Source: Euglena gracilis
Taxonomy: Eukaryota
DNA length: 64,000 bases
NCBI GenBank assembly: GCA_039621445.1
Contig: CP154954.1
Coordinates: 13,510,716 to 13,574,715 of the forward strand
Reading direction: 5' to 3'
Both the position numbers and the translations under genes were made by a program. The notes below the pieces were generated by a model. It saw only the letters and a list, made by a program, of their open reading frames with translations. It had not been told where the DNA came from and did not search any database. Below are positions 7,970-62,303 of the stretch, piece after piece. Each line of letters begins with the position of its first letter. Positions within the stretch are counted from its first letter, which is position 1.

Positions 7970-8069
7970 GCCCGACCAATGGCACACGAAACCGGACATT
8001 AGAGCCTGACCCCACGACATGTGGAAGGCAGAGACAGATGCGCCGAGTCTTGAGAAACTGGAACTCCTA

Positions 8070-9396
8070 GGCGAGCGGCAGGGCGACGATCGGTCCCCCC
8101 TACACCTTCGGCGGCCACTTCGGTGTGCCTGCCGGCAGGTGGAGATGAAGAACACCTGCAGAGTGAAGGCGATGGTGAAGGGGCGGATAATGTCCTCTGC
8201 GCTGCTCTTCCTACTCCTGCTCAGCCCCAACCAGACGACGCACCCGCAGGGGATGTACGTATGGTTTCACCGCCTGTGCCGTAGGCTGAACCACAAGTCG
8301 ACGTGGCTGGTATGGTTGCCAAGGATGCTCCCAAAGAACCTGCCAGTCCCTCAGTTCGCCCCTCATTACGAGGCCGTGTGCTCGGCGCCGTGTTGAATGG
8401 CATTACTACCGTGGCCGCTGCACTAACGCCACGAAGTGGAGGTGCGGAATTAAGCCCCGCCTCTGAGGCTGTGGAGGTACCAGATGTTCTTGACCCTGCA
8501 CATCCATCTCCTGCAACACTGCAACCACTGACAGGGGATTAACCACAACCGACAGAGACATCCTTCGCACCTGATACAATCAAAGAACCTCCTGCAGCAC
8601 CTGCGTCAACAGTCACGTCACGGAGGATTAACCTCCAGTGGCAACAGCAGCCGTCGAGATCGAAGTGAGGGAAATACCCCACGACCACCGACACCGCGCA
8701 GGATCCCAGGAGTACCGAGGACGATGGCAAAGTTTCTGGGAATGCCAGCAGCTGTGGAAGCACCGATTCTGGTGTCGACAACAGTACCGCGTCCCGTCGG
8801 GCACTATGAAACTGCACGGGCGGCTGCCGGCAGAGCAGTACCAATAACGCGCGTCACCTCCTCGGGGTGTCATGCGACATGAGTAGGCCGCCCACATCGG
8901 CTCTTGCCCCAGCAGTGCAGGGATCCAAGCCGGGTGCTACACCCTGTTAGCCCCCTGCTAAAGGCAGCGATGGGAAACCACCACCGAAAGACGGCACTGG
9001 TGGCCAGACCGAGTACAGCCGAAAGGCAACGACGGTGCACGACTATTCGGCCGTCGATTCGTTGGGATACGGCGAGAGCAAATCAAAAGGTAAGGCTCGT
9101 GACGGCCAAGCACAATCGTCTGCCGCAATGGCGACGGGCGAGGAGCAGGACGAAATTGCTTCGCTCCCTGCGCCTCCGGATGCCCAGCTCTGTGTCAAGG
9201 ATATCTTGACCGGCCTAGGAACCGTAGAAGCACGGACGAAGCAGATGGCTGCTATTCAGCACCAGAAAGGGTCACTGAATAGATGGATTCAGCAGTTGTT
9301 CGTCAAAGGAGAGCCCTTCCACTATGCCCAATAGCATACTTTGACGTTCTGGAACAGCCACTAACCCCGAGTACTGGCATTGTTCTTCAGAGAAGA
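8070..9396 (+). pseudogene. Decayed 5' part of cargo ORF-X (homolog of 29070-31310), split by a nested insertion
   Basis: Translation LNRWIQQLFVKGEPFHYAQ*HTLTFWNSH*PRVLALFFRED aligns with LNKWIEPLFFNDQKHNYYVRHIWRFYNARSPRVFAQYLGET. The upstream part is Pro/Thr-rich. Confidence 0.75.
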
Positions 9397-9880
9397 CGTG
9401 TAACAGGCAGCCGTAATGCACACGTACTGTGTATGCAGGTATAAGACTACGGCCAGATTTAGTTCTCAGCCTCATACACAGTACTTTGTTGGATGGCATT
9501 CCTAAAGATGGCCGACGTCCTGAAATAGTCAGCCACGCTCTATAGAGCAAAGCCTTATTTGGTTCTTCTCTCCACAGGTATTATTATTTATTCTCTATTC
9601 TCTGTTCTTTATTCTCATCTCTTTATTCCCTGTTGTTTTCTTCGGTTGTCATCATGTCAAATTCGCTCATTCAAAGTGCTGAAAGGACTGCCAAATCACC
9701 TGTCGTTTGTTTGTCACCTACAAAAGAGCTTTCTTGCCTGCCTTGTGCTTTGCTTGTTAAGCTTGTTAAAAGGAAAGTCAACGTTTCAGGTTCTTTTTGT
9801 GTCTTAATGCCAATTTTAGTTTCCTAAGTAGGCGGCGCAACCAGAGGTGAAAGCGAGGAAAGCAGGGTTGGACGTACACT
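9397..9880 (+). repeat. 5' LTR (CGTGTAAC...GTACACT)
   Basis: Direct repeat of 15661-16128, with many substitutions. Confidence 0.85.
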
Positions 9881-10559
9881 TGGAAGCATTTAAGTTTTTG
9901 ATTTTTTTGACCTCAAACGGTTGTGTGGTACACTGACTATTGGCGATACAGGCACCACAAGCCGTTTACGGCAAGAGCCGTACACACGCACGTCTCATCT
10001 GAAGGTTTTGATCATTGTACGATGCTTCAACCCTCAGAGTTCAGGACTCTGCATACTATTTTTATTTAGCTTTCCCCCTTTTTTTTCATTTGTTCCCCCA
10101 TATTACACTTGGTTTTGGTGGTTCATACAAAAATGCAGAGCACAACGCCAAGGTCCACCGACTGCGCCGCATTGGTTGGTGCACTTCGAGGACTTGAAGT
10201 TGCGGCATCTTTGACAAGCTCCAATGTGCATTCCCAACCCCAACGGGGCACGCGCAAAGCATTGTCACTTAACAGGTAATCCCCCTATTCAGTGTGTGAC
10301 ACAACTATTGGTGTCTGTGTCGAGTAGCCATCCCCCTTCCTAAAGGACTCCCCACACGTATCGGTGTCACGGATTAGGGAGCAGCCCAGTGCCAAACGGG
10401 CACAACCACGGTTGTTGGAAATCCGATCGGCTGACGGCTATTCCCCCCGGCGAGAAGTATTGGTGCCGATAGCACATTTAACCCCGAGGCGGTTGTGCCG
10501 CGACAACTTTTTGTGCAGGGTTGGTTTTAAACAGCATGTGTTTTTCAAGCCCACCCCTG

Positions 10560-11081
10560 CACTTCCCCACCCCAAATCCGACTGGACAAATACCGAAATC
10601 AAAAATGATGTGGGGGAGTTGGTAAATATTTACAACATCCTGTTACCGTGAATCAGAGAATTGTCGCAAATCTCCCAGTGGAGCACCCCCTTATGTGTAA
10701 ATCTCCCATGTACACCAATATGTAGCAGACTGCGCTATGACACCTAAAAAGGTTTTGTATTTTGATGAAAACAACCAAAAGGTCGTATTAAACAAGCTGG
10801 ATTTCCTCTAGGCTTATGTCCGTGATGTTGGTGAATTCCTTTAATGAGGTTCGGGATGTGGCACAGAAATACTGCATCAAATTGTTTCTTGGTTTGTGTT
10901 TCCCAATCCTCATCCACTTCGGCTGCCAACCCAATCCACTTTGAGTTGCGGGATTGTGTCTCACTCATGGCTTCAGTCACTTTTTGGAAGTGTTGTGGCA
11001 AATGTTCTTGCAAATGTGTCTCAAAACCTTGGCGCAAATTTACCAAATCCACACTGGTGGAATGAATTGACCGCAGCAGGC
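10560..11081 (+). pseudogene. gag-like coiled-coil ORF remnant containing a 235-bp inversion
   Basis: VHQYVADCAMTPKKVLYFDENNQKVVLNKLDF matches VQQCVADCATALNKVLQFDEDNQKHVFTKLEY of ORF 59940-60512. The next homologous block lies on the minus strand at 10834-11068. Confidence 0.72.
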
Positions 11082-11815
11082 TGTGTGCGGCGGACAGCGT
11101 GTGCAACACCAGGACCAGTGTGGTCCGGATAGATTATTGGTTAAGGCGTTGGCCTCACACGCCGGAGGTCGTCTATTTGAGACTCAGGTCCCCCCGTGTG
11201 AGTCGCGGTCGATCACGAAAGGGCAGAGGGCCTACCGCGGGGATCGATAGGCTTACCTTCGGCCGTTTACGTGGTAGCAGAGGATCCCGTCCAATGTCAG
11301 ACGAAACCGGACATTAGAGCCTGACCCCACGACACGTGGAAGGCGGAGACGGATGCGCCGAGTCTTGGGAAACTGGAACTCCTACACCGTTCCAAAGTCT
11401 CAAACCGATTCAAAGGGTGACGCTTCAAGGCGACAGAGCACGTAGAAGAGTACAACACGTAAACTGCCGGCTATAGTAAACCCGAGATGCAGAGGCCGGC
11501 AACCTGGTGTTGCAGTACTTGTGTGAGGCACTATCCAACTCCGTCCGTGTGAGGCATACCCCGAGATGCAGGGGCCACGGCCACGGTGACGCCCTTGGGA
11601 GTGGAGTGTGTGCGGCGGACGGGATGGCGTACGACACACTACAGTGGTAGGTGTGAGACCAGTCTGGTCCGAATAGATTATTGGTTATGGTGTTGGCCTC
11701 ACACGCGGAAGGTCGTGAGTTCGAGACCCAGGTCACGCCGTGCGGCTCTTGGTCGGTCCCATACTGGCAGAGGGCATACCACGGGGATCGATCAGCGCAC
11801 CCTCGGCTGTATACA
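11082..11815 (+). mobile_element. Complete TRIM (734 bp) with tRNA-Val-derived LTRs
   Basis: 5' LTR 11082-11271; PBS TGGTAGCAGAGGAT 11272-11285; PPT GGGAGTGGAG 11597-11606; 3' LTR 11607-11815 (TGT...TACA). TSD CAGGC/CAGGG (CAGGG at the equivalent flank of copy A). Both LTRs carry GCCTCACACGC and a B-box-like motif. Confidence 0.85.
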
Positions 11816-12949
11816 CAGGGCCAGCAGCGCAGCGGCGCGCTCCGGGTGGCCAACAGGCCACACCCCCACCTGTGCCCGTTGTGTCTGCCTTGCCGGCCAA
11901 ACCAGCGCCAACGGCGCAGCCGCCCTGCCGGCACCAGCAAAAGCAGCGCCAAAGGCGCAGGCAATGTCAGTACCGCAAACCCTGGAAGCACCAACGGTTG
12001 CTCCATCCCAAGACTCTATCACGAAAATACGTAGTGCGCCACCACCTGCTGAGCAGTAATTTGCAGCTCATAGAACCACACCAGCGCAGTATCGCGAATG
12101 TTCGGACGAAAACCTCATGCGGATAGCCACCGAAAGAGCAGCTCAAAATAAAATGATTGAACTGCCTAGAGGCCAAACCCTCCCTAATAATAGTCCACCG
12201 CTATTGGCGGATATGCAATATCAACCTGCCGCATACCCAGCATCCAAAATGGCATATGCCCTACAAGAACTGCTCGGACGAGCAACTGATATGAATCCCG
12301 CCTTCTAGCGTCCAACCTCAACCCCTACAAATAAAATGAAGCCAGAAAGGAACTTTCCCGAGTACGATTGGGATTAGGTTATGGCAAAGGTGCACCCAAG
12401 CGAGCACCTGCTGCACGCCAGAAAGACCAAAGCAAAGGCCAAAAAAAGCCTATTCCGTGACTCATATGAGAATGATATGGAAGCTCTATTATTATTATAT
12501 TATTCAATGTGATCATGATCTCGATTTCGATGGCATATGCAGGTTACAAAATTAACTCATTCTACCCGTCCTCGGGTCTTCTCCTGTCATCCCTGTGACA
12601 AAGCAGCTCGATAAGGAGCGTTCGCGTCAGTTCCACCATGATAGAACTTTGTATGTCTTTGAAGGTAACGTCGTCACTGGTCCGATATTAGGTGCCAGTA
12701 TTCTGCCATGTCTGGTTCGTGGCGGGATACCCCACACAAGATTTCAGTAGGTTCGTTAACTCATGTGGTTACCCTTACCTCTAGTGTGGCCTAGAAGACA
12801 GATAACGTACAGATAAAGACCAACTGGGAGTCCCTGGTGATGCACCACCACCCGTATTCGGACGTGGTCGGCTTTACCGGGGGACAGCATATTTTTGCAC
12901 CTATCAGAGCAATTGCGCGAGAAGGCCCTGTGCCAACAACTACAGCGGA

Positions 12950-14800
12950 TCGCCCACATTCACCTACACTCTCACCGGAAACAGCTGAGGACAGTGAACA
13001 GTGTGACGCAGAGGGCGGTCAAGTCCGAATGAAACGCTTGGAGCACATCTCTGCTGAGGAATCTAAGTATGCAGATGTCCCAATAGCCCTACTGGGCTCC
13101 AGGACAACTCTGCCTCACGTGGGAGATGAAAGCCATAGAGCTAAGTCCCCAACACCCGAGGCCGAACGGCCGCTGGTACCACCGGTACCACACGTCTCCT
13201 TACCTAGAGTGCCAATGGCACCACCCACAGAACCCGTCACATCAACGAAATCTCCCACTGCAGTTTTCGCTGGTGTGCTACAGGGATTGTCAGCAGTAAT
13301 GTCTGCTGTCTTTGCTGTGCTGACCCCTCGGGGTTCCCCAGCACCATCGCCCCCTGAAACATAAATGGGTTCCTGCTGAGGATAGCAGCTCAACAGAAGC
13401 ACAGGCTGCCGCCACAGCTCAAATGGAGGAAGATGTGCCAGGTGCTAAGCCAGGAGCTCAAGCCTGGCCAACAGCAGAAATGCAACAACCTCCTGCCAAG
13501 CCGGCATCCCAGACACCACCAATGCCGGAAAGACTACTGCCTCCGGCGGATCCCCGAAAGAATACTGATACGGCAAGAAAACCAGGGCCCCTAAAGTCAA
13601 AGCCCTTGCCGAGGGCACTTGCGAGCCCGCTGAACGGCGGCAGGATGACAAGCCACCGCCTCCTGACGCAACTGGCTCTGGTACAGGCAATAGTCCCACT
13701 ACCACATGACCAGCAATGTGGCTGAAACATCCACAGGAACTAAGTGCAAACCTACCATCACATCGTTTCTGTACAGTGTCCCTGACGAGGCCGAAGAGCA
13801 GCCTTGGACACAGGACGTACTTTCCAGAGTCGACGCCCTGCAAAAACGTCGGGCTAGGATCAACATGATCCGCAACAGCAGTGGTCCCTGGCAGAACAAG
13901 TGGATCAATCCCTTGTCCCAGAAAAAACAACTTGGTGTTTTCACCACCAGCCACTTTTGGCTTTTTTGGAATGTGAAATCTCCAGGGGTATCCGCCCAAT
14001 GTTTTGGAGGAATTTTGCCCCGTATTTCCAGGAAAATGACCGACAATTGTGGTTATGCACAGCATGCCACAGGCTTTGCAACGATGTGCTCGCCGTGCAT
14101 ATATACACACGCAACCCAGATAGCATAAGCTTCCACCATGATGTATATGTGTGCAATTGCGCAGTCTTTATTTGCAGTGACTTACTGGCATGGTCAAGAA
14201 TGGACATTTTCTGCTGGAAAGAAAATAAATATGACAAGGACATACCTGTCCGTTACATCGACTGCCTAACAAGGCAAAATGTCTGGCTTCGTGCCGATGG
14301 CAGTATGACTAGAGGCTTTCCGGAAAACGAAGACCATCTAGTCGAAATTAAAAAAGCACTGTAAGTCCCAACTGTATATTTATCAGTTCGCAAAATTCAA
14401 CGGTGCACACCGCTATATGACAGGCGGAATCACCAAATATTTTCATTTCGACAGGGCAGTTGTCCGGCTCACAGTCGACTCTACTGGAAAGGCCAAAGTG
14501 CCATACGCTTTTCAGATTTCCAATTAGGATTGGGTGATATACCAATTGTTTCAGGAACATCTCTGCAGAACTGGTCACACTATCTTTGCTGCCTGACTAA
14601 CCACCTGCGGCATATGACCTCACTTGTACTGAGCGGGTAAGAGATATCTTATGACCATTTACCATCCGAGGACGAGTCACAAACTGTCACTGCATGGCAG
14701 ATACTGCCCCCCGATGATAGAGATTATTGAAAGTCCCGAAGGCACTTATGATCGTTGATCAAGCCTGGCTCCGAAGCCGATTTTGTTCCGGAGATCAAGC
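12950..14800 (+). pseudogene. Frameshifted copy of cargo ORF-X
   Basis: NKWINPL, WLCTACH..AVHI, FHHDVY, DIPVRYIDCL and WLRADG..ENEDHL align in order with 29070-31310. Multiple frameshifts and stops. Confidence 0.8.
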
Positions 14801-15660
14801 CAGCCAAAAGAACTGCCGTCTGTGCAATCGATACTCCAGGCCGACACACCACAGGTCTATTGTCCCTGTGCTGACAGTTCTGTCAGACCTATACTGCCTG
14901 TATGCAGTATCCGCACTAGGCACATCTGCCAGTATGTAGTTGTTATAGGTACGTCGCCCCTCTCTTTTTGGCTACCGCCGTGGTTACCGAGGTATAAGTC
15001 TCTGGGCATACCCCATCAACAACACGTTGTCCGCTGCGCCCTGTGAATCCTTCACAGAGGTATGCAACGCCAGTAGGAAGACGCACAGTGTACAGCGCGC
15101 ACACCGTAAGAATAGTTACCAACTTGTCACTTTTTGGGCCTGGGGCCCCATAAGACTTCCGGGCTGCAAAGATTCTGCCTAAAGCCTTTTGACCAGCCCC
15201 ACACACCTCTCTCATTTCCCCCAATGGGCAAAGTGGCCGTCGCGGCAGTTGATTTGGTAGGTAGATCTTTCTTCCTGATCCGGTATGACTGGACAGGTGC
15301 CCCTCCTTCCACACCCTACACTGCATTCCCTTCAGATTACGGAATGAGACCTCCCTGAGTGTCATGGGCACACCCCAATCAGGGTAGATGGGACTTTCTG
15401 GAAAAGAAACCTTCCAGCCACATTTTCCCACGGTCTCTTCCATTTCCACCCCTTTGCCGCAATAGGTAGGCAACGCATGAGCAGTTAACCCCTTTTGTAT
15501 GTTTTTGTATTATTCATCACTTTCTTTCCCCACACCCCTTGTGACAGGAGAACCAAAAGCCTCATACGGCTCTGTGGCAGATCCCTGCCACCAGGACTGT
15601 GTCAGGCAATCCTACTGGCCTGGACAAACAGGGAAATCGGGAACAGCCCTGGAGGGGGAA

Positions 15661-16128
15661 CGTGTACCAGGCAGCTGATTTACGGTGTATGAAGGTGTAA
15701 AACTATTGCCAGATATAGTTCTGAGCCTCATACACAGTACTTTGTTGGATGTCATTCCTAAAGATGGCCGAGGGCCTGAATTAGGAACCCACGATCTATA
15801 GAGCAAAACCATATTTGGTTCTCCTCTCCACAGTTAGTATTCTTTAATCTCTATTCTGTTTTCATTATCGTCTATTCTTTATTCTCCGTTTTGTTCTTCA
15901 CTTGTCTTCAAGTAAAGTTTGTTCATTGAAAGGCCTGAAACGACTGCAAATTAATCGGCGTTTGTTTGTCAGCTCCAAAGAGCTTTCTTGCGCAGGATTG
16001 TGCTTTGCATCTTAAGCTTGTTAAAAGGGAAGTCAGCGCTTCATTTGATGTATATCATTTTTCTCTACTTTCTTAAGTAGGCCGCGCACCAAAGGTGAAA
16101 GCAAGGAAAGCAGGGTTGGACGTACACT
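15661..16128 (+). repeat. 3' LTR (CGTGTACC...GTACACT)
   Basis: Preceded by a PPT; direct repeat of 9397-9880. Confidence 0.85.
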
Positions 16129-16133
16129 GAAGA

Positions 16134-17070
16134 CTGTGTGGGGGATTTCCAGCACGGCACGTCTTTTGCATGGACGTGCACTTTGTGCCACTATGTGCGC
16201 CACAACCACCTCCTTGTGCATGTGTGCAAGCGGCAAGTGCAATCTCGGTCGTCCCGCCACAGGGCATATGTGCTGAACTGCGTGGCTGTCGTATGTAGCG
16301 AGTGTCTGAACCTCTGCAAGCACAGCTTTAACTGCTCCTAGAGTGAGAATGCTCACGGCAGGGAAATCCCTTCCCTGTGCATCAACTATGTGGGTGCCAA
16401 GTTCGTGCAGACAGCCGGTAGCCGGTGGCACGGTCACCACCACTGTCGCCCATCACTGGGAGACGTTGGAGAAGTAGAAGAAGGAGTACAAACAGTTGGA
16501 AGGCTGCCTGAAGCACTCCGAATTCAAAAATGCAGAAAACTACAACCACACGGGAATGCCCCTGAGTTCCAGATCGACGGTTGGGCAATGCGTCTCGCGG
16601 TCGAGGATGGTGCCATGGTAAAAATGCCTTACCACTGGTCCGACCGGGAAACAACGGTCCCCGTCGTTATCCATAGGTCATAATGGCGGACACGCCCTGC
16701 CGTACTGGCCACTCAAAGAACACCACTTGGTGCACATGGGCTGGTTTTAGGTTGTATGTATTACGGCACCACACGGCAAGGACTCGGACAGCGAACTGGA
16801 CGTACGACGTCAAACTCAAGCAGTATCCGGGGATCACCCACCCGGCGTGTGCAAACGACCCCGGATGAATTATATCATCTGGCGGGTGATGCTGACTAGA
16901 ATTGTCTGGGATCAGCTCCAACGGTATCGTCAGCATCATACTGTATGTACCAGGGAGAAGCATACGGACCGTTGGATCAAGGAGTGGGATACTCCAGCCG
17001 TTGATGTCTCCAGCCGTTGATGTCAACAACCCGTAGCACAAAAGCATCTGAAGCGAAGTCACTCCGCCGC
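16134..17070 (+). pseudogene. Decayed 3' part of cargo ORF-X (continuation of 8070-9396)
   Basis: AWTCTLCHYVRHNHLLVHVC...AVVCSECL aligns with TWLCTVCHNIRNSTPAVHVC...ALICGDCL. FQIDGWAMRLAVE matches FQTDSGGIRLAVE. Confidence 0.78.
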
Positions 17071-18027
17071 GTTCTCCGCCCCGGTCGAGGACCCATTAGG
17101 GGGCCGTTAACACCACTGCTGCCGTGAAGTGCGCTTAAGCCTAGCCGATAAAGGCAGGTGAGAGAACTGAGAGTACCAATGCGGTCTTTTCCAGCGCATT
17201 TGTCAGTTATTCGCCTGACAGCGTGGTATTACACCGCACTATGTACCCATATGGGGGAGAATGACTTTCCTCTACCCTGTTTCGGGTCGTCCCCCGAACA
17301 CCAACCCTTTGCGTTGTTTGCCGCCAGTAACTCTCAACCGTGGTGCTGCAATGTGCAGGATTCTGTGCGCATGCACACAGACGTTTCTCAACTCTCGTGC
17401 ACGTGTGACGCACGCAGCGCACAGGGCCGACAGCCTACTTTCCTTTCCTTTTCTTTTCGGCCATTTGACGCCATAAGGCTGTCCAACAGCACAACTTTCC
17501 TTTTCCAAAGCCACCCCCGCCCACCACTCCTATCTACTTTCCCCCAAGGGCAAAATGATGGGTTAGGCAGTTGGTTTTGTAGAATATGTTTTCTTTTGCG
17601 TGGTCAGGTTCGACTTGCCATGCCCCATGCCCACATCTGACTGGTCAGAGGTCCCTTCCTTTTCCACAACATCCATGTAGTTTTTCCTGGAATGCCCGTG
17701 TACCCAACCCCAAGTGCCTTGGGTACACCCAAATTAGTTGGATGGGTTTGCTTGGCTAGGAAACCTGTCAACACCATTTTACCCCTGATGGACTAAAATA
17801 TACTTCATCCTTAAGTCACTGCAGAGTAATTGAAACCATTTTGCGTGTTTTCGTATTTTTGGGTTCCACTATTCTCTCCCTCTAATGAGTGGATCCTCGT
17901 GCGACGGGAAAGGGGATCCTGAGAATGCGTCAGGGTGCACCTCACACAGACCAGGTCTGTGTCCGGAGTCCTTCTGAACAGAATGCCTGGTTCAGAAGGT
18001 AGATCGGGCATAGCACTGGGAGGGGGA

Positions 18028-18328
18028 TGTGTACCAGGGGTATGCTATCTGCTCTTCCGATGAGGAAGTCAGTATGAGAGCAGATCCTATTAGGATCTTC
18101 TCAGCCCCCTTTCTCTCTCCACAGGTGGTAGTCTGCTTATATCTTTTATAAAGTGTGCACCATAAAATCAACTGTGATTTTTCCTTTTGTATCCTTCCCT
18201 GTGCTTTGCGTCTGCCGTGCGGGGAGCTAAAAGGTGTTTTTCTGCTCCTCTCATTTTCAGTCGCCTATGTAGGTGCGACAAGATAAAGCGAGGCTTTTGC
18301 GGGCAACAGGGAACATGAGATGTACACT
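18028..18328 (+). repeat. 3' LTR of the host ORF-X family element
   Basis: PPT GGGAGGGGGA directly upstream; ends TGTGTACC...TGTACACT. Homologous to 58800-59127. The upstream region matches 15540-15660 and 31580-31693. Confidence 0.8.
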
Positions 18329-24082: not shown

Positions 24083-24569
24083 TGGGCGCTGGACCTGTTC
24101 TCCGGAACGGCCAGTGTCAGAAGAGCGATGGCGAAGATGAGCTTCAAGGTGATCAGCATGGACTGGGACGAGCAGTGGAAGGCGGACATCGTGGCCGACG
24201 TGAGGAAGTTGAGGTACATCGCGGCGTCCCTGCCCTGTACCGAGTACTCCACAGCCCTCACCACCCGCAAGACCAGGCTGCGCCTGGTGAATTGAAAACC
24301 CGAGGTTCGGCTTGCTGCGGTAGCGACGAGTCCTGGCGGCGTGCGGTACATGGATGTGGACTACTGCCGCTTCGCGGAGTATGGCTATCGCAAGCCGTCC
24401 CGCTTCTGGGCTGGACGACGTCATCTGCCGTGTAAAGTGCAGCAGCATGGTGGAAGGACCAGACGGCGAATTACGACACCGGCTGCAGCTGGGAGGCACT
24501 GGCGGCGAGCGCAGGTGCACAAGGGAGGAGGCCTATTGCATCCCGGAGGGGGTGGTGCGGTACCTGTGA
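24083..24569 (+). pseudogene. C5 cytosine DNA methyltransferase domain within a retrotransposon polyprotein (disrupted)
   Basis: Ordered motifs: ALDLFSGTASV (motif I), VISMDWD..ADIVADV (II/III), AASLPCTEYS (IV, catalytic PC), W*IENP (VI), DYCRFAEYGYRKPSRFW (VII/VIII) and AYCIPEGVVRYL (C-terminal). Contains deletions, stops and frameshifts. Confidence 0.85.
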
Positions 24570-27510: not shown

Positions 27511-27609
27511 CAGTGGAAGATGCAGCAGCTGCTGTGTACAAACTGGGGGAAGGCTGTGGCAGTTGATAAATGGTGGTCCATGGGATAACCCCAGATGGCA
27601 ATTGAGCAT

Positions 27610-27790
27610 TGTCTGTGCAGGGTAGTCTCTCTCCTGCCCATAGTCCTGCTGCTGCAGGGGTCTTCTCTGTGCAGGGTTCTCTCTCTCCTGCCCATACTCG
27701 TGCTGTTGCAAGGCTCTCCTCTGTGCAGGGTATGCTCTCTCCTGCTGCTCATACTCCTGCTGCTGTTGCAGGGATCTTCTCTGTCCAGAG
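27610..27790. repeat. ~57-60-bp tandem repeat, 3 copies
   Basis: CTGTGCAGGGT..CTCTCTCCTGC..CATA.TC.TGCTG.TGCA recurs three times. Confidence 0.8.
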
Positions 27791-28055
27791 CAATCTCTGA
27801 CAGGTCTGTCCTGATCAGTCCTCCTCCAGTCTGGAGGGAAATCAGTTGCACTCCTCCTGTCCAGAGGGTCACTACCACGCTGTACAATGATCTATTTCTT
27901 TCAGGGATTCTGCTGCGACTTCTTGTCTGTATTTCCCAGTACTCAGCTCTTCTTTTCCTGTCAGCCTGCTTTCGTTCCCAGCTTACGAAAGCCAGGATGG
28001 CATCGACAATTTGCCGGGTTTCTGGCAACTACTTTTCTGGCTCGGATTTCATTGC

Positions 28056-28784
28056 ATGAACTTCGGTTCATTTGCAATGCCCGCCAGTAAAGCGCACTAC
28101 TTGCCACATGTAAAGCTACAATACGGATGGGAATCAGCCCCTGACGCACTGAATACAATGTTCGACAATATCCGAAAAATCGGACCACAAGGAATACAAT
28201 GGGAAGTATTCCCACTTCCAAAGGATATACAGTTGGTGACACACGAAATGTTCTGTTACAATTACCAAATTTTCCTCAACGAACACTACGGCCCCCACTT
28301 CCAAGTGGTCGGAATCGACCTGACATACCCACAAAAATTCGTCGTTTGGTGCACACACTGCCTCCACAAGTTCCCCGTGGACTTCTGGGGCTTTGGTGTG
28401 CGCGGTCGGACAACCGACCGCCCAAACGCACAAAGGGCGCAGCCCCACCAACGGGAATTGGCGGAGGCCCAACAACAACGAAGACTACTTGGACACATCT
28501 GCCACAATCCCCTCGAAGTTAGGGAAATAGGATACGCCAGACGAAACCACCGACAAATGCTTCTGCACATGCAGACGTTCCAATGGAGAGCATGGGTGTC
28601 CTATGCTCTGGAAATCTACAATTTATTCAACCCAAAACAACAACTCCCACAGGAATACCTCCCTCTTCGACCTGAATGGGACGAAGACGGAAAACGGAAG
28701 TACATCAAACGCCTGTTTGGCGAAACCCTCCGAAGAGAGGATTTTGCCCCATTTTTCAAGGGCAAACGCACAAATAAGGAGTAA
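28056..28784 (+). CDS. Unknown protein ORF-Y (~242 aa), cargo of an LTR element
   Basis: Open, non-repetitive frame with globular-looking composition and WCTHC and HICH motifs. Lies just upstream of ORF-X on the same strand. Confidence 0.55.
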   Translation: MNFGSFAMPASKAHYLPHVKLQYGWESAPDALNTMFDNIRKIGPQGIQWEVFPLPKDIQLVTHEMFCYNYQIFLNEHYGPHFQVVGIDLTYPQKFVVWCTHCLHKFPVDFWGFGVRGRTTDRPNAQRAQPHQRELAEAQQQRRLLGHICHNPLEVREIGYARRNHRQMLLHMQTFQWRAWVSYALEIYNLFNPKQQLPQEYLPLRPEWDEDGKRKYIKRLFGETLRREDFAPFFKGKRTNKE

Positions 28785-29069
28785 AAAAATTTGTCGGATG
28801 GCAAAACTTCCGTCTGCGACCACGTATAAAACTCCCTGAACCCCAACCTGCGGAGTCCGAGACAACACAGTCTGCAGCTGAACAACCTCCAACGGCTGCA
28901 CAATCTACAACGTCAACAGCCAAAGCAGCAGCGAAGTCTGCAACCAAACGTTCGGAAGAACGTTTGGCACAACCTCCACCTACACCTACCATGTCTGTGG
29001 AACACATTCCCGTACACTCTTCAGACTCTTCGTCGTGTTTCCTCTTCTGGGTCATCCAGCGATGAGGAA

Positions 29070-31310
29070 ATGGAAGAAGGGACAGACAATGAACACAGTA
29101 CACGCTCCGTCTCCTCCGCATCTGTGGAGTCTGAACCCGAAGATGCCGGCGTACAACATGCTCTAAGGGCCGAAGTGCCAGTTACAACGCCTGCTCAAAC
29201 ACGACCACAAACACCATTGCCAGACGCGGAACCTGACGCGCCTGCAGAATTTACAATGGCCGAAGTGCCTGAAGACTCGGCCGCAGCGCCTTCGGCAGAC
29301 GTGGTTCCACCTACTCCCGCACATGCGGAAGCTGGACAGGAAGCAACTGATGCTGAGATAATCGCATTTCGCGAACTGATCACAAGACAACAACGGGAAG
29401 GTATCGAAAGATACCAAGACCCCGACGACTTTATACTCATACCACCACAAGTTGGACGCGCTGCAGAACGCGGAAGCGTCCGAAGTGGCGTAGCCTCGAT
29501 GGTTGCAATGTTGCGATCGAGATCTTCCTCTTCCACGCGAAGTCCCCGTGACACGGGACTTGGCGAACAACCCATACAAGAAGCTCCGGCTTCAGCCCCG
29601 GCATTGGCAGCAGACGCGGCCAGTTCTACTGCTGACGCCCACACACCCGAAGCGGTGACAACAACCGAATCGACTACGGTCGAACAAACGCCACCACATG
29701 ACACAACACCCGTAGTGGTACACACACCTGAACAGGTGGTACCGACGGCTCCTGACGTACCACCTACCACCACACCAACGGTCAAACCTGCTCCAAAGTC
29801 GCCTGCAGAATGCCCCCTTCCGCCACAGCGGAAAGAGAAAGGCAGTAAGCCTAAGGCTAAACCACAGCCTGCAGAACCGTGCAAACCTGCTGAACGACAC
29901 AACGAACCAAAACCACCTCCACCTGGGAGTGGTAGCAAATCAGGAAAGCGGGCGAAGACCCTAGCTGCTACCACACCAGCTCCAACATATACCGAAGTGG
30001 CCGGGAAAGGCCGGGTCACTTCTACCCTCCGAGGTAGAACTCGACAAGATACAACGTCTGAGACCTCGCAAGAGGAAAACATGCCGGTTGACGATAATGC
30101 CACCCTTTGGCATGAGGACATTATCTCCAACCTGCCGAGCGTCGAAGAACGCATTGCCATGATACAATCAGCCCGCGAACGCGGAATTTTGTTGAACAAG
30201 TGGATTGAACCACTCTTCTTCAACGACCAGAAGCATAACTACTATGTTCGCCATATTTGGCGATTCTACAATGCCAGATCACCAAGAGTGTTTGCCCAGT
30301 ATCTTGGGGAAACATTCCTGTTTGACAATAGGCCGAATGGCCAAACAACTTGGCTCTGTACTGTCTGTCACAACATTCGTAACAGCACGCCAGCTGTGCA
30401 TGTCTGTTATGCAGACAACAAACGGAAAAACTTTCACCACAATGAGTTCGTTCCACACACAGCCGCTCTGATTTGCGGTGACTGTCTCCTTACCTGGAGA
30501 CAACTGAACAACTTCCGGTGGTCGGAAGAAGACAGAGACCGTGACGTACCTGTTTTCTGTGTCAAGTGCCTACGGGCAGACATATGGTTGCCCGCAGATG
30601 GCGGAAATCTCAAGATCGTACCCGGAAACGAGGACGTTCTGGAAGATTTCCTGAATTTCTACAAAACAAAACGACAAATGTACCAGCACAAAAGCTTCAA
30701 GAAAGCTCAGGCTTTTGACCGCGGCGGAATCGCCTTTGACTTCCAAACTGATTCCGGCGGAATCAGACTTGCTGTGGAATGTACAAAAGGGCGATTGCCC
30801 CTACTCTTCAATGATGACGACTGGAAACGAGTCATTTACCCACTCTTTACAAAGCCTTCAACGGTTTCTGAAACCACACAACGATGGTTATTGCCTGACT
30901 ATCCACCTGAACGACATGGTTACGAACATTATTCAGAATGGGTTGGTACCATTCTGAAACCACACATAACCCGCTGTGCCTATGCATCCCGCGCGCACAA
31001 CGTTGATTTCAACGCTCTGCCTGGGATGCCACCACAGGTACCAGCAAAAGATCCAAGATGGAACTATTACATATGGCCTGCAACTTTTCCGAGAGTTCTC
31101 TGGGAAAATTTGCAGCTTTACCTCCACAAGCGAGCTGAAACGCTCAAAACCGAACTGCCCAGGGAAATACAAGAAGTCAAAAGTTGGGTTATCCCACGGA
31201 TCAACATGGATGATCCTGACAAGGATACCCTAGACTTACGTCCAACTGAAATGACCTTGGTACAAGACCCACACATGGGTGAGTACTTCAAGGAAACCCG
31301 CAAACGTTGA
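29070..31310 (+). CDS. Unknown protein ORF-X (746 aa): disordered Pro/Thr-rich N-half and CxxC-rich globular C-half
   Basis: Long open frame with motifs CTVC..HVC, CGDC and CVKC. Two diverged homologs in this window are conserved at protein level. Ends ~380 bp before the PPT and 3' LTR. Confidence 0.8.
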   Translation: MEEGTDNEHSTRSVSSASVESEPEDAGVQHALRAEVPVTTPAQTRPQTPLPDAEPDAPAEFTMAEVPEDSAAAPSADVVPPTPAHAEAGQEATDAEIIAFRELITRQQREGIERYQDPDDFILIPPQVGRAAERGSVRSGVASMVAMLRSRSSSSTRSPRDTGLGEQPIQEAPASAPALAADAASSTADAHTPEAVTTTESTTVEQTPPHDTTPVVVHTPEQVVPTAPDVPPTTTPTVKPAPKSPAECPLPPQRKEKGSKPKAKPQPAEPCKPAERHNEPKPPPPGSGSKSGKRAKTLAATTPAPTYTEVAGKGRVTSTLRGRTRQDTTSETSQEENMPVDDNATLWHEDIISNLPSVEERIAMIQSARERGILLNKWIEPLFFNDQKHNYYVRHIWRFYNARSPRVFAQYLGETFLFDNRPNGQTTWLCTVCHNIRNSTPAVHVCYADNKRKNFHHNEFVPHTAALICGDCLLTWRQLNNFRWSEEDRDRDVPVFCVKCLRADIWLPADGGNLKIVPGNEDVLEDFLNFYKTKRQMYQHKSFKKAQAFDRGGIAFDFQTDSGGIRLAVECTKGRLPLLFNDDDWKRVIYPLFTKPSTVSETTQRWLLPDYPPERHGYEHYSEWVGTILKPHITRCAYASRAHNVDFNALPGMPPQVPAKDPRWNYYIWPATFPRVLWENLQLYLHKRAETLKTELPREIQEVKSWVIPRINMDDPDKDTLDLRPTEMTLVQDPHMGEYFKETRKR

Positions 31311-31693
31311 GGGTTTCCTACATCGTACAATCAGCTACGGCTGAGATGGGCGTAGTCCCACATAATGAGCGAAGTCTCGAGCGTGAATACGCACTTAATC
31401 ATCGCGTTCAACACCGTTTCAAGACCCTGTGGCGGAATCGCCTTAAGTTCGGTCGATAAAATGTTCATCGCGAAGACTCAAGACTACAAAGACACTACGG
31501 TGTCAAGTAAGAAGACGCACAAAGCACAGCGTGCGCGCCAGAATTCTTTTGCGCTTTGTGCTCCAAACACGGTAACCGTAATTGGGAACCAGACAATGGT
31601 ATCCTGGTACTGTCTCCCTGAACCTGGGACTGTGCCTGGCATCCCGACTGGCCTGGTCCAGAAGGGAAATCGGGCAGAGCCCTGGGAGGGGGA

Positions 31694-32125
31694 TGAGTAC
31701 CAGGCAGCCATTCTGCCATAGCACTGTGTACCAGATACAATGGGCTACGGCCTACAATCTGGCTACGGCCGGGCTGTACACAGTGGCATGGTTAAACCGT
31801 AAGACAAAGAGAGAATCTCAGAGCTAGCGAAAGATTAGCGAAAGTAACTGGTTCCTAATTCAAGATTATTGGGTTTAGTGCTTTGCAATTCTCTTTTGGA
31901 ATTCTGAGGGCGAAGTCCCATTTGTGTACAAGTTTTATTTCTTTCTTTTACAAAGATCGAAAGAGCAAAAGTCACTTTCAAATAAGGGACTGCGGTCCCA
32001 CCAATTCTTCTGCTTGTGTGCTTTGCATTCAAAAGTGGAAAAGGGAAACAAATTTTACTGTTACTCCCCCCACGGGCTTTTCGGGAGGAAAGCATAAGTA
32101 GAAAAGCCGGGGTGGGACGTACACT
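31694..32125 (+). repeat. 3' LTR of an ORF-X family element
   Basis: PPT GGGAGGGGGA upstream; ends TGAGTACCAGGCAGCC...GGACGTACACT, as in 15661-16128. Confidence 0.75.
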
Positions 32126-33117
32126 CATCACGTCGGACCGGGGCCCCCACTTCGGGGTGGCCTGGTGCAGGGCCATGTGCAAGGCTGGGGGTGCGCCACG
32201 CCTTATCCCAGGCGTACCACCACGAAGGCAACGCCCGCTCGGAGGTCCTCGGCGCACAGATCCAGAAGCGGCTGAAGAAGCTGAAGGCGGCGGAGGGCGT
32301 GGCGTGGCCGGAGGCGCTGCCGCGAGCCCTGCAGACCCGGCAGGTGCTCTTCGGCCGCGAGCGGTGGTACGACGGGTTGCCGTACCAGCCGCCCACGCAG
32401 GCCGAGGACGCAGTGGCCTTCTTCGAGCGCATGCAGGACATCGATCGTCGTGTCGCAGACATCTTGAACGAGGAGCACAGCAAGACAGCCGAGACGGTCA
32501 ACAAGCGGCGGAAGGAGCTGCCGGAGCTGGACATCAACGACAAGGTCTGGTACCTCCGCCCGTGCACCCGCTCTGGCGAGAAGCTGGAGACTTACTGGAT
32601 CGGGGCGTGTGTGGTGGCAGAGCGCACCAGTGAGCACACGTACGTGCTCCAGATGGAAGACGGCCGGAGGTTGGTGGCCCACCCATCACAGCTGAAGGGC
32701 TACCACCACGATCCGGCCCTCATGGGGCCACCGCTCCGTCTCTTCCACTTCCACCAATCCAGGGGGGAGGAAGGTTCCCGGCTGGACGGGTGGGAGGTGG
32801 AGGCGATGATCACCCACCAGCGCGATGCTAACAGCAACCTCAAGTTCCTCGTCAAGTGGCTGGGGTACGAGGAGAAGACGTGGGAGCCGCTCAGGCACTT
32901 CTTCTACCGGTACGCCTCCCTGATTGTGTCGTACTTCGTCGAACACGACAGCATGGAGGACATCTTGAAGTACCGCTCGAGGTTCCCGGAGGAAGCCCAC
33001 ATCGCCATATGCCACGGCGTGGAGACGGAGAAGGATAAGGAGAAGGAGTTTGGGATGTCCTGGGAGGAGCCACCAGAGGAGTGGATGTTGCAGGAAACCG
33101 AGGACGGAGACGTATGA
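32126..33117 (+). pseudogene. Ty3/Gypsy integrase C-terminal half plus chromodomain
   Basis: ITSDRGPHF and SQAYHHEGNARSE (integrase core), KVWYLRP..KLETYWIG (GPY/F-like), and WEVEAMITHQ..LKFLVKWLGYEEKTWEP (chromodomain). Confidence 0.88.
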
Positions 33118-34229: not shown

Positions 34230-35306
34230 CCAGAGGGGCCGTTCAAGAACGGGCCGTGGGGGGCAAGCACGTCCCAGAGAGGACGGCAAAAATGGCGGCC
34301 GGGCGGTCGCCCAGAACCGGGGGAGAGCCGTAAAGCAGCCCTGGGAGGCCGCCCACGACCCCAGAGGGTGAAGGGCGCCGAAATGAGGCCCAGGGCGGCC
34401 GCCCACGACCTGAGATGGGGGGGGCGCCGAAAAGCGGCCTGACCCCGGGTAGGGGGGGGAGTGGGGGTGAATAGAGGCCCAGGAGGGCCGCCCACGACGC
34501 CAGAGGGGGGGGGGCGCCGAAAAGCGGCCCAGGGGGGCCGCCCACGAAGCGGGGGGGCGGAACCGAAGAGCTTCCCAGGATGGGCCGCCCAAGACCACCC
34601 CGGGGGGGGGCAAGCACAGCCCGAGGGGAACGGCAAAAAAAAAGGGAGCGGCCGGGGGGCCGCCCCGACCCGGGGCGGGGGGACCGAAGAGCGCCCCAGG
34701 GAGCCTCCCACGACACCAGAGGTGGGGGGGCCAAAAAGAAGCCCAGGGGGGCCGTCCAAAAAAGGGGAGGGGCACAGAAGAGCGGCCCAGGGGGGCCGCC
34801 CAAGACCACCCTGGGGGGGCGGCAAGCACGGCCCAAGGGTGCCGGCAAAAAAAAAGATGGTGGCCTGGGGCCTCCTAAGACCACCCCGCGGCGGGGACCG
34901 AAGAGCCGCCCAGGGGGGCCGCCCACGACCCCAGAGGGGGAGGGGGCTCCGAAAAGCGGCCCGACCCCGGGAAGGGGGGTGCGAAAAGCGGCGCAGGGAT
35001 GCGGCCCACGAACCGGGAGGGGGGGGCACCGAAGAGTGGCCCATTGGGGCCGCCCGAGACCTCCCGGGGAGGGGGGCGGGCTCCGAAGAGCGGCCCAGGG
35101 CGGCCGCCCAATACTACCCCGGGGGGGGCAAGCACGGCCCAGGGGGGCCGGCGAAGAAAAGAGAGAGGGAGAGTGGCCGGGGGCCTGCCCAGACCCGGGG
35201 GGGGGGGAGAGCACCCAAGAGCAGCCCAGGGGGGCCGCCCACGACCCCGGAGGGGGGGGGGGCGCCGAAAAGCGGCTCAGTGGGGCCGCCTACGACCCCA
35301 GGGGGG
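34230..35306. repeat. G/C-rich satellite (AAGAGCGGCCCAGGGGGCCGCCCACGACC-type subunits); continues at 43243-43400
   Basis: Many degenerate copies of the motif separated by G runs. Confidence 0.85.
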
Positions 35307-58799: not shown

Positions 58800-59127
58800 C
58801 GTGTACCAGGAGTATGCTTCTGTCCACTTCCGATGAGGAAATTAGGATGCAAGCAGATCCTATTAGGCTTTCCTAATGTGTGCTCCTTCTATCTCCACAG
58901 GTGATATTCTGTTATATTCTTATTCTTTGTTTGTTTTCCTTTTCTCTGGACCCCACTTAGTTAACCAGTCCGACCTCCCCGCATCGCTCTGTGCTTTGCT
59001 TGTTGGGAAGTTGGGAAAAGGGTTTTTTCTGTTACTCTGGTTCTCAGTTCCCAAGTAGGTGCGCCAAGGCGAAAGCGAAGGCTTTTTTTGGGGATTGGGA
59101 AAGGGAATTGGGAATCAGACGTAAGCT
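58800..59127 (+). repeat. 5' LTR of an ORF-X family element, followed by PBS TGGTAGCAGA (59128-59137)
   Basis: Homologous to 18028-18328; starts CGTGTACCAGG. Confidence 0.82.
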
Positions 59128-59338
59128 TGGTAGCAGATTGGTTTGATCCCTCGCTGACTGGCAGCGGGGAGCCCCTGCTCCGTTATTGCACGGTTGCAGC
59201 GTCAGCTTTAGGGTTCTCAACGTCTAAGCAGACGAGCAGGCTCCGGAAGGGTCTCTACGGTATCACCCGTTACAGCCCCTCTGGTGCCAACACAACTGAT
59301 TACTTTTGTGGGTTTTTTGCTGTTTTTGCAGTCAGAAA

Positions 59339-62303
59339 GATGCAAAGCACAGGCCCCAACCATCAGTTGAACTAGGCCTTATTACAGGCGTCATTGCAAG
59401 ACATTGACCAAGAATCTGGGGATTGGAAGCTTTTATGTGAAACTGCTTCCAGTTCCCACGCCTATGAGGCACAAATGGGTTGGTTCAATTGTCACAATGG
59501 CAACATTTGTCATCATTGACAGTGGTCGGCGATGAGCCCTCCACATCATTGGATTCAGAGGCTAATGCGGCCTCTTCCGCACTCACCTTACCACAACGGG
59601 GGTATTGGCCTCTGTCTGCATCAACCGTGCTGCTGCGCACACCAGAGAGACCCGTGGTGGTTCCGTCACCTGGCTTCTCTGGTGTTGGTGGGCTAGAAAC
59701 ACCTGTTTCTTTCAACCACCACCAGCTCTCCCACCTGCAAGCCCTTACAGAGCTTTGCCATCACCACCCGGTCCTGGGTGTTATCCCACACTACCTTGGC
59801 AACCGGAGACTTGCCTAGTGGTACCGGAATTCTCTGGTACATCCCAACCCATGGACGGCTATGGGAATGACATTGGGGACCCCCTCACTGCTGAGGATGT
59901 GCAGGATATCGTTGCCCAGCTTCCAGGGGTCACCCCCTTGTGAGGCAGTTCAACCATGTGCAACAATGCGTTGCAGATTGTGCAACCGCACTAAACAAAG
60001 TGCTTCAGTTTGATGAGGACAACCAGAAACATGTCTTCACCAAGCTGGAATACTGCTGGAATTACTTGCAGGAAGTTGGCAAATACGGTCAGCGGAATTT
60101 CGAAAGTGCGGGTATTGACGTTGCAAACTTTCTGGATTCCTTTGACAAAATGTGCCAACAACTGGCACAAAACTTCCGGCAAATTAGTGAATGCATGCAT
60201 GAAGCGGAAATGCGGAATGACTCCAAGTTTATACACTTGCATGACTCACTACAACGACTATCAGGACAAACTGAGTCCTGTTCATCAATGTTGTTGCATT
60301 TGCAACAACAGTGGCATGCACGAGAGTCCTCGTCGGCAACAACCAGCGGTGGTGCATTTGTGTCTGTGGACCACTTAAACACCCTATCCGGCACTTTTTA
60401 TGAATCGCAACACCGCATTATGCAGTTGTGCAATGAAACGGAAACGTTTCGACAAATCCAGTCACACGCCAACGAGAATTTTGCTCCCCACACGTATGTG
60501 CGGCAGTTGTAGGAGCGACTTTCCAGTTTGGAACAGAAAACCTGCTATTGTGACGCGAATCAGGTTGGATTATCCAATCTGAGCGAAAACGTCGCGGAAG
60601 TACCACAACGGCAGGAGTCCATGCAATTGCAGTTGCATTCCGAAATTAGCGGTATTAACTCGGCCATTGCGGGCTTGCAACAAAGTGTGCGCGGTCCGAG
60701 GGTGCCCGCCCCAAGGTGGGGTCCCAAGGGGGCCCAAAAAGGCCACGAAGGGCCGGGAGGGGGCTCCAGGGCCCTCAAGGGCCTTTTGAGGCCTCCCTAG
60801 CCCCCAAGGGGGCCCCACAGACCGTTTGGAGCAAGCCAAGTGAAGGTAAAGGAGGGGGTAGGTTGAGGGGGCCAACAGGTAAACCCAAGGGGATGTGCAA
60901 GCCCCTCCGGGCTTTGCGCAAGCATGCGCACCCCCTTGATGGGCGCTTGGGATGGCGCAATTCATTTAGAAATTCGCAAAGTATACCAAGTAGCCCCCCC
61001 AGCTGTGGCCTCCCCCAATTGTACATTTTCTTGGGGTTTCCCCCTTGGTGATATAGCGGGGTAGGGGTGGGTGTTGGTGTAGCCGGAGATGTTGAATAAT
61101 GGGGGGAAGACATACTTTTGCCTCAACAAACGAACTTGAGTACTTGATGAATGAGAGTTGAACTTGAATTTTTAATTAATTCTTTCCTTGATTTGTCTTT
61201 TGCAATGCACAATTGAATGACAATGTGAGAACACAGTCGATAGAGTAAATGGGGCTCAAATGCAAACCATCCTCGCAGGTTGCGCCACAAGGGGTCCCTT
61301 CACAGGGCACTCAGGAGGGGCAACCCTTACAAAACCTATTCCGCAACTTTCTAACCGAGTTCCGGACATTAGCGGTATTCAAACAGCTATTGGGGAACTC
61401 CAGACCCGGTATGCATCGGTGTCTACCAAAGTAACGGAAATGCAGTCACTGCTTGCAGGTTTCAGTTCCCGGATTACCGAGAAACCAGATTTCAAAGCAT
61501 TTTATGACAAAATGCCCACGGGTAATCATGAAACATGAAACCTTGCAAGATTTCTGCAACAGCATATTACGGCTTGAGGAATCAGTGAATCGGAATGCCC
61601 GATCCACGCAAGGTGAGAATACCAGGTTGGATGAGCAAATTTCTGCCTTGCTGGATAACCCACAACCCGGAAATTTCCCCGTGGGTACCACAACCGCGTT
61701 GTCGGATAACCCTGCACCGGTAGCACCCACCACCACAAAACCAAGGTGACACCACCTTTGCGAATTCTCTCAAACGCAGTGAAAGCATTAACGGGACAAC
61801 TGCAATCATTGGATGAGTCTCACTTGAAAATTGTCCAAGATGTTACCGTAATTTCCGAAAGGATTCTGCATTTGGATGACGTTTCCCGTTACCGCAAGCG
61901 TATTAGCGCTTTGGAGGAAGATGTTAACCATATTTTCGGCCAACTTCAACTCGTTGAGCATTTGGAACAAAGTCTGCATGACTTGTCTGTGGGTTTGGAC
62001 AATTTGTCCAACCAACAGCGGGTTTCACACCGCAATTCGGCAGTATGCATTGCTGAAGATGCGCCAAATGTTCCAGGGTCGTGTTTCCATAACCCGATTC
62101 TAGGTGCACATGCACCACCACCACCCGTGTCCTTCGTGTTACAATCCGCGATTCCGCGAATTGTGCCACCACTGGCCTTGCCCATAAGCCAAACCCAGTT
62201 TTCGGATAAATTTCCCATTATGGGAACCGAATTTTCGGAAAGCACGGCGATTCCCCTAGTCTACACCAAGAAATCCAAATTTCCATACTTGTGCGCAGAA
62301 TGA
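59339..62303 (+). pseudogene. gag-like coiled-coil ORF remnant (stops, frameshifts, insertion at ~60695-61245)
   Basis: A chain of helical ORFs downstream of the LTR and PBS. Protein-level match to 10560-11081. The gag identity is inferred from position only. Confidence 0.6.

Follow-up and report, generated by a model that had tools for sequence, protein, structure and literature searches.

A 3' gene with an undescribed protein domain in a nested cluster of Euglena gracilis LTR retroelements

An intact gene and its decayed copies

The 64,000-nucleotide stretch of the Euglena gracilis genome analysed here (contig CP154954.1, positions 13,510,716 to 13,574,715; hereafter the window, whose own coordinates are used throughout) holds a nested cluster of long terminal repeat (LTR) retroelements. 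Our subject is an intact gene of 746 codons, the second open reading frame (ORF2) of one of these elements, which lies upstream of a polypurine tract (PPT) and a 3' LTR. The element carrying the intact gene is referred to as copy A, those carrying two decayed relatives of it as element B and copy C, and a member of which the 5' part is present as element E. The features of A, B and C on which the argument depends are the following.

27983..32125, +: copy A as a repeated unit, delimited by a step in summed contig depth, with loose ends at 27983 and 32125
28011..28784, +: first open reading frame (ORF1) of copy A, encoding 257 amino acids (aa), part of the repeated unit, its frame open from 27891
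29070..31310, +: ORF2 of copy A, intact 746-aa gene in an open frame, stop codon included
29070..30101, +: N-terminal half of ORF2, residues 1-344, acidic and rich in Pro, Thr, Ala and Ser
30102..31307, +: C-terminal conserved domain of ORF2, residues 345-746, in which Trp occurs 14 times, Cys 9 times and His 15 times
30357..30569, +: putative double zinc module of ORF2, with nine invariant Cys/His residues
31615..31693, +: DNA block conserved among the copies (15582-15660 in B, 17985-18027 in C), ending in the PPT
31694..32125, +: 3' LTR of copy A, 432 bp, starting TGAGTACCAGG (TGTGTACCAGG in other copies) and ending GACGTACACT
9397..16128, +: element B, old and complete (6.73 kb), with paired LTRs and a target duplication
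13263..~15000, +: ORF2 remnant of element B, frameshifted, some Cys ligands mutated, 3' limit approximate
8378..9396, +: 5' part of the ORF2 remnant of copy C, interrupted by the insertion of element B
16134..17017, +: 3' part of the ORF2 remnant of copy C, where the frame resumes after element B
18019..18328, +: PPT (18019-18027) and 3' LTR (18028-18328) of copy C

Read from stop to stop, the frame of ORF2 runs from 28830 to 31310 (826 codons), and under the local base composition an open frame of 746 codons has a chance probability of 1.8e-15. An earlier reading of the window, made from its letters and translations only, had reported this frame as open over 746 aa and had listed six motifs, all of which are present in the translation (KWIEPLF, WLCTVCH..VHVC, FHH, ICGDC, CVKC and WLPADG). 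The two halves of the protein differ in character. Residues 1-344 have an isoelectric point (pI) of 4.9, 76% disorder-promoting residues and not a single Trp, and are probably disordered, judging by this composition rather than by a disorder predictor; the C-terminal half (345-746) has a pI of 8.3. A basic stretch, seen in the net charge per 40-residue window, spans residues ~241-325. Since the highest mean Kyte-Doolittle hydropathy over 19 residues is only 0.85, ORF2 contains no transmembrane segment, and with this maximum and an acidic N terminus it has neither the signal peptide nor the transmembrane anchor of an envelope-like protein.

Nine Cys and His residues of the C-terminal domain, spaced C430-x2-C433-H434-x9-H444-x-C446-x22-C469-x2-C472-x24-C497-x2-C500, are invariant in an alignment with four to five informative homologues, where a residue counts as invariant if it is unchanged wherever at least four aligned sequences cover the position. 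By the same measure, the residues L375, N376 and W378, the residues D561, R566 and E570, and a block reading P651-G-M-P-x-Q ... P662 ... N665 ... I668-W-P ... W678 are also invariant. The Cys/His pattern fits two sequential zinc sites, and the zinc binding proposed by the sequence-only reading is to this extent plausible. RING and PHD cross-braces follow the order C-x2-C ... C/H-x(1-3)-H/C-x(2-3)-C-x2-C ... C-x2-C. Like them, ORF2 has at least eight Cys/His residues in four pairs; unlike them, its second and third pairs are separated by 22 residues instead of 2-3, and it has no significant Pfam match. Judged by its spacing, the module thus does not fit the RING/PHD cross-brace, nor does it fit the CX2CX4HX4C (CCHC) knuckle of nucleocapsid type, and Pfam finds no capsid-like domain in ORF2.

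Two further lines of enquiry into the domain were less productive. An interpretation of the FHH motif as an HNH-type site was dropped because its His residues are not conserved, the pair being replaced by N/T in the homologue P0004 and by T/Q in the homologue P0008. The AlphaFold modelling suggested by the sequence-only reading gave poor confidence (pLDDT 34.7 from the single sequence, 40.8 from a 14-row alignment), and both models being too poor, no fold comparison was made.

Searches of the window by tblastn, tblastx and a family profile find exactly two further copies of ORF2, those in B and C; among 1,589 stop-to-stop ORF pieces of at least 25 aa, the eight with E<=0.001 all fall within A, B or C. 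As had been stated from the letters alone, both are strongly diverged in DNA, to the point that A, B and C cannot be aligned apart from a block of 54-94 nt before the PPT, where they are 78-89% identical. The motifs, which the copies were also said to keep, are retained in relatives of 20-45% identity; the remnant in element B is frameshifted and has several of its Cys mutated. A short helix reported in the disordered part does occur at 8378 in C and at 13263 in B; copy A itself has only a weak counterpart (GVASMVAML, at 29487), at a similar distance from the domain.

The ends of the elements are shared more closely than their genes. A polypurine tract, GGAGGGGGA, directly precedes the LTR start in all three copies (in copy A it reads GGGAGGGGGA, at 31684-31693), and the combined motif of GGAGGGGGA followed by (T/C)GTGTACCAGG occurs three times in the window, at 15652, 18019 and 31685, against 0.02 expected. 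ORF2 or its remnant lies 0.4-0.9 kb upstream of this motif in each of the three cases. The stop codon of the intact gene is 374 nt upstream of the PPT, so that its earlier description as lying just before the PPT and LTR is right about the presence of both and approximate about the distance. In four aligned element ends the LTRs start with (T/C)GTGTA and end with GACGTACACT, and the termini of the family can be given as TGTGTACC...GTACACT. Copies A and C show the 3' LTR only, and element E the 5' LTR only.

As the sole DNA conserved across three diverged copies, the block before the PPT suggests a cis-acting signal. An RNA structure in this block was considered and set aside: a hairpin is predicted, yet none of its 22 pairs covaries among the three sequences.

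Element B supplies the complete anatomy. Its LTRs (9397-9880 and 15661-16128) are 80.7% identical over 457 nt, it is flanked by a target duplication of 5-6 bp, GAAGA(C), at 9392-9397 and 16129-16134, and its 5' LTR is directly followed by a degenerate sequence, TGGAAGCA, resembling a primer-binding site (PBS). The element sits inside the ORF2 reading frame of copy C. Removing B together with one copy of the duplication restores that frame as ...E-D-C-V-G-D-F..., parallel to EDCVLDF in P0002, a protein from an E. gracilis transcript which aligns, with 70-74% identity, to the parts of copy C that flank the junction. Because the empty site restores the frame of C as it stands in P0002, and a target duplication accompanies it, we have direct evidence of an integrase-type insertion by which one family member came to be nested in the gene of another. 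With the paired LTRs and target duplication of B, and a PPT in three of three copies, ORF2 belongs to a real LTR retroelement family.

Several other repeats surround these two elements. Short interspersed repeats, 62-92% identical, occur in and around B and C (7784-8069, 11099-11384, 11606-11814 and 18723-18919), as does an inverted pair (7621-7737 and 10830-10946); we took the translation of these short repeats to look tRNA-derived, an assumption which ARAGORN and Rfam, finding nothing at the repeats near B and C, do not support. A tandem array with a unit of ~1,107 bp, its copies 95-99% identical, occupies positions 1-7100 and ends near the lost 5' part of copy C.

Relatives of the protein and constraint on the gene

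Pfam returned no family for ORF2 at E<=1 and none that was consistent across ten family members at E<=5; a zf_RING-like match in one of the ten (E = 1.8) is noise. A profile search of PDB sequences gave a single chance match, to an antibody chain (E = 1.3). In line with the sequence-only reading, then, neither resource holds a match to a known transposable-element or host domain. Word-indexed searches found nothing for the domain and nothing for ORF1, and with the ORF2 family profile only P0008, which was already known. A protein-atlas look-up pointed to bacterial or unnamed clusters, the domain scoring 0.78 and ORF1 0.89, both values inside the noise range of the tool.

Relatives of the domain came from an exhaustive HMMER search of 1.84 billion cluster representatives, with no length limit. 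There are nine, the longest of at most 380 aa, and none is fused to reverse transcriptase (RT), integrase or any other domain. Two are Euglena gracilis transcripts from EukProt, whose proteins share 70-74% identity with copy C and 57-70% with copy B. The remaining seven are encoded on short contigs in public assemblies (ENA, JGI/IMG, Logan). The closest relative of the domain of copy A is 41% identical and none reaches 50%; since the library holds cluster representatives, and a closer protein would have had one of its own, the A subfamily is absent from this protein collection. Scans of metagenome contigs gave no relative among 152 peptide-pattern matches and no match to a DNA pattern of the PPT block, and a scan of viral contigs gave none among 46 pattern matches. 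By all of these comparisons the C-terminal domain, known from the window, from two E. gracilis transcripts and from seven short contigs, belongs to no described family.

Between the copies, the proportion of synonymous differences (pS) is 0.73-0.86, which is saturated, versus 0.37-0.47 for nonsynonymous differences (pN). Nucleotide identity is lowest at the third codon position in four of four pairs and follows the order 2>1>3 in three of the four; these figures, like pS and pN, derive from protein-guided alignments, which bias the outcome toward apparent constraint. Given the codon-position pattern, and the retention of the ORF2 motifs among relatives at 20-45% identity, the comparison shows a gene under long protein-level constraint. 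The claim of a real, long-selected gene of an LTR family is borne out by the same values.

Structure, abundance and surroundings of the elements

Copy A is abundant but incomplete. In one DNA run, summed contig depth rises ~20-fold at 28005 and falls at 32225, and it is greatest where the LTR begins (31623-32024), roughly double to triple the depth of the interior. There is no second copy of its LTR in the window and hence no 5' LTR, and contigs show that other genomic copies continue upstream of 27983 with letters unlike those of the window. On the strength of the missing LTR, the depth step and the continuation of other copies past this point, copy A is 5'-truncated or interrupted at ~27983. 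ORF1, for which no homologue was found in B, in C or in any searched database, could be only the C-terminal portion of an ORF that begins farther upstream, because no stop closes its frame before the truncation point.

The region 27000-33000 is matched by 13,419 contig pieces of one DNA run, with 3,926 at >=99% identity, 5,283 at 95-99% and 4,210 at 90-95%. Contig-piece counts and summed depth are a rough measure of abundance and not a copy number; as such, they point to a large and recently active A family. At 29035-29036, upstream of the ORF2 start, a single base is missing from most other genomic members of the A family (deletion depth 50,669 of 59,025 in run X1). ORF1 and ORF2, which share a frame in copy A with two TAA codons between them, are in different frames in most copies.

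Element E, near the right-hand end of the window, complements B at the 5' end.

58800..59149, +: 5' LTR of element E (58800-59127) and a putative 22-nt PBS, TGGTAGCAGATTGGTTTGATCC
59895..62303, +: decayed 5' ORF of element E, helical/coiled-coil

Over 118 nt, the LTRs of E and copy C share 78% identity. An LTR end followed by TGG occurs in the window at 9871 (in B, degenerate) and at 59118 (in E), and TGGTAGCAGA... directly follows the LTR end both in E and, to judge from contigs, in other genomic copies, with a degenerate form in B. We presume that this PBS resembles the 3' end of initiator tRNA-Met; the window itself contains no tRNA gene and no Rfam match. Positions 59908-60086 of E are homologous to 10660-10838 of B (65% identical in DNA, 51% in protein over 45 residues). 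The shared segment lies 780 nt past the LTR end in both elements, where it begins a helical ORF that can be traced in E to ~62.3 kb, interrupted at ~60.66-61.1 kb by a GC-rich stretch which we take for a possible insertion. The 3' portion of E, where ORF2 would be expected, is beyond the window end. Across these members an architecture of the superfamily emerges, consisting of an LTR, a putative PBS, a leader, a helical 5' ORF, ORF2, a trailer of 0.4-0.9 kb with the conserved block, a PPT and an LTR.

In this architecture no polymerase gene was recognised. Pfam found no family in the three + frames of 7000-21000 (stops read as X), none in the interior of B from 9881 to 13500 when this was cut into pieces of ~600 residues (E<=0.1), and none in the three + frames of 58600-64000 except a coiled-coil artefact, NPV_P10. 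Gag, protease, RT, RNase H and integrase are accordingly without a recognisable Pfam counterpart in the + frames of B and of the 4.9 kb that follow the PBS of E. The 5.78-kb interior of B divides into ~2.7 kb of ORF2 and trailer, ~0.75 kb of inserted short repeats and ~2.3 kb of remaining sequence, and a pol gene would not fit into these last ~2.3 kb.

The remaining DNA of the window is rich in elements of other kinds. To the left of copy A lies a GC-rich nest including a remnant resembling a long interspersed nuclear element (26349-27710, - strand), with a weak zf-RVT match (E = 5.7e-4, below the Pfam cut-off) and a tail which we take by eye to be RNase-H-like and for which Pfam gives no family. 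To its right, at 32126-33117 (+), a chromodomain (Pfam Chromo, E = 2e-6) marks a GC-rich chromovirus-like element, into which copy A seems to have inserted; the end of a presumed integrase-like gene also lies there (SDRGPHF..., then a frameshift), Pfam supporting the chromodomain only. Motifs resembling I and IV of C5 DNA methyltransferases (LDLFSGTAS and PCTEYS; 24089-24250, +) were set aside, as Pfam finds no DNA_methylase on 24059-24520; a methyltransferase there would have agreed with the 'EpiLTR' elements described from Euglena. Finally, two repeats of at least 509 bp (35300-35808 and 41938-42448), 6,638 bp apart, are 100% identical and enclose an open frame of 1,049 codons (36263-39412) with no Pfam match and with 102/126-bp tandem repeats at 37444-38316; the region 35300-42448 could represent either a duplication or an LTR-type element of very recent origin that carries a further orphan gene.

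Interpretation and comparison with known systems

The interpretation that we favour, and to which we give about an even chance, is that ORF2 is the conserved 3' gene of a superfamily of pol-less LTR retrotransposons mobilised in trans, and that it encodes an element-specific RNA-binding or particle protein. ORF2 is placed in a pol-less family, and not regarded as cargo on an autonomous element, because B and E show no gag, RT or integrase. As the members that can be read lack a Pfam-recognisable RT or integrase, the elements would depend on enzymes supplied in trans by autonomous elements, by which they would be copied and integrated. The persistence of the gene through the divergence of pol-less subfamilies suggests that its protein may act on the RNA or particle of its own element and so favour the propagation of that element. 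Its role would then be that of a Gag or nucleocapsid, without descent from either, and it might direct the polymerase and integrase taken from other elements to the transcript of its own. A basic linker followed by a putative double zinc module is compatible with nucleic-acid binding. A specific packaging role, considered on its own, is a tentative proposal which we would sooner doubt than assert.

Several observations weigh against this interpretation. Firstly, the search for pol covered only the + frames of B and E, and the Pfam scans of long frames are less sensitive than those of single ORFs, as the weak zf-RVT match was missed by the former and caught by the latter. Secondly, B is old, with LTRs of 81% identity, and may have arisen by internal deletion; E is cut by the window end. 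Thirdly, ORF2 has neither a CCHC knuckle nor a capsid match, its 3' position is not the usual site of gag, and the models of its fold are of low confidence (pLDDT 35 and 41). The ORF1 of A is without a counterpart in B or C, and the subfamilies therefore differ in content. Copy A, the sole intact copy, is 5'-truncated and lacks a 5' LTR, and full-length A-type elements may therefore carry pol upstream. Contigs of the runs X15, X16 and X19 cover ORF1, ORF2 and the LTR, but their label as RNA was guessed, and since they offer neither strand nor level they were not counted as evidence of expression.

In a different account, ORF2 is an extra 3' ORF carried as an accessory by an autonomous element, the gag-pol of A-type elements lies upstream of ORF1, and B and E have arisen from such elements by deletion. 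Its protein would in that case act on the host, through silencing, chromatin or targeting, and the chromatin or anti-silencing factor suggested by the sequence-only reading would belong here. The truncation of copy A and the extension of other copies upstream of 27983 agree with this account, as do the frame of ORF1, still open at the truncation point, and the location of the gene directly before the PPT in three of three copies. Euglena LTR elements have, moreover, been reported to gather extra domains (bioRxiv 10.64898/2026.05.21.726589). The account must nevertheless explain why the complete element B has neither a trace of pol nor room for it, why the 4.9 kb past the PBS of E contain no pol, and why all nine homologues are of at most 380 aa with none fused to RT or integrase. 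We consider it possible, though unlikely. The description of ORF2 in the sequence-only reading as accessory cargo, with no gag, pol or env motif and no transmembrane segment, fares accordingly: the absence of such motifs in Pfam and of a hydrophobic segment (maximum 0.85) is confirmed, whereas the term cargo sits poorly with B and E, which have no recognisable gag or pol, and may still apply to the truncated copy A.

That the gene was captured from the host, the E. gracilis transcripts stemming from a cellular gene, would account for the two homologues that are transcripts and for a domain without relatives among known transposon proteins. However, all three copies in the window have the same position within their elements, which are diverged members of one superfamily, and the alignment of P0002 with the decayed copy C continues through the site at which B inserted. 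The family is also tiny and patchy (nine matches among 1.84 billion, all of them fragments), unlike a conserved cellular gene, and its contig matches in DNA runs are very many. We regard a captured gene as highly improbable. A new enzyme of mobility (a nuclease, recombinase or integrase substitute) is hardly credible, for although the invariant Asp561, Arg566 and Glu570 and the PGMP.Q...P..N..IWP block look functional, with the zinc modules adjacent, no catalytic family was matched in Pfam or PDB sequences, the FHH pair that might have formed an HNH-type site is not conserved in P0004 and P0008, and DDE integrases produce target duplications of 5-6 bp.

A bolder extension of the favoured interpretation, of an RNA-binding or particle protein of pol-less elements, is conceivable, although we would not expect it to hold in full. 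ORF2 would represent a lineage-restricted new class among retroelement proteins, in which a disordered arm precedes a Trp-rich module with two zinc sites and no CCHC knuckle, and would serve as a packaging or recruitment factor that lets pol-less elements out-compete their autonomous donors. Its family would form part of the unclassified repeats of Euglena gracilis, whose genome of 2.37 Gb consists of repeats for more than half, with 32.7% given as unclassified repeats (PMC11252322). A very abundant LTR family which never possessed a polymerase of its own, or has lost it, and which still maintains a large orphan protein by selection would offer a test case for what a parasite of parasites must encode. 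Should the protein prove to be a packaging or recruitment factor, it would be a new solution for a job done elsewhere by Gag.

A literature search, in which papers were judged mostly by their titles and the openings of their abstracts, found no description of the present family. Its nearest analogues in way of life are non-autonomous LTR elements which keep a Gag gene at their 5' end and can reach high copy number, such as BARE-2 of barley and the plant TR-GAG elements. The present family shares with these the LTRs, PPT and target duplication, the want of a recognisable RT and integrase of its own, one or two conserved ORFs and, probably, mobilisation in trans; its putative PBS would be a further likeness. 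Unlike in BARE-2 and TR-GAG, however, neither the helical 5' ORF nor the 3' gene matches Gag, capsid or CCHC, and the best-conserved gene is the 3' one. LARD and TRIM elements are likewise pol-less and have non-coding interiors, whereas the present family retains a gene of 746 codons under protein-level constraint. Among elements of Ty3/gypsy type, extra 3' ORFs are represented by the env of insect errantiviruses and the env-like ORFs of plant Athila/Tat elements. ORF2 resembles these in being the last gene before the PPT and 3' LTR, and differs from them in having no signal peptide, transmembrane segment or sequence similarity, and no pol upstream of it in B.

Closest in host are the DAM-LTR and 'EpiLTR' elements of Euglena, which are reported to carry RT, integrase, a chromodomain, DAM and DNA methyltransferase (DNMT) (bioRxiv 10.64898/2026.05.21.726589). 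They and the present family are LTR retroelements of the same host lineage with unusual extra protein modules. The present family differs in being without recognisable RT, integrase, chromodomain, DAM and DNMT, and the ORF2 domain is undescribed and unrelated to their modules. If ORF2 is instead an accessory, host-directed factor, it joins the unusual extra modules reported for Euglena retroelements; either way, it provides a protein profile for a class of repeats overlooked by standard libraries. In kind, then, the elements nested in this Euglena LTR cluster are familiar ones; what has no description is the protein domain that they carry.

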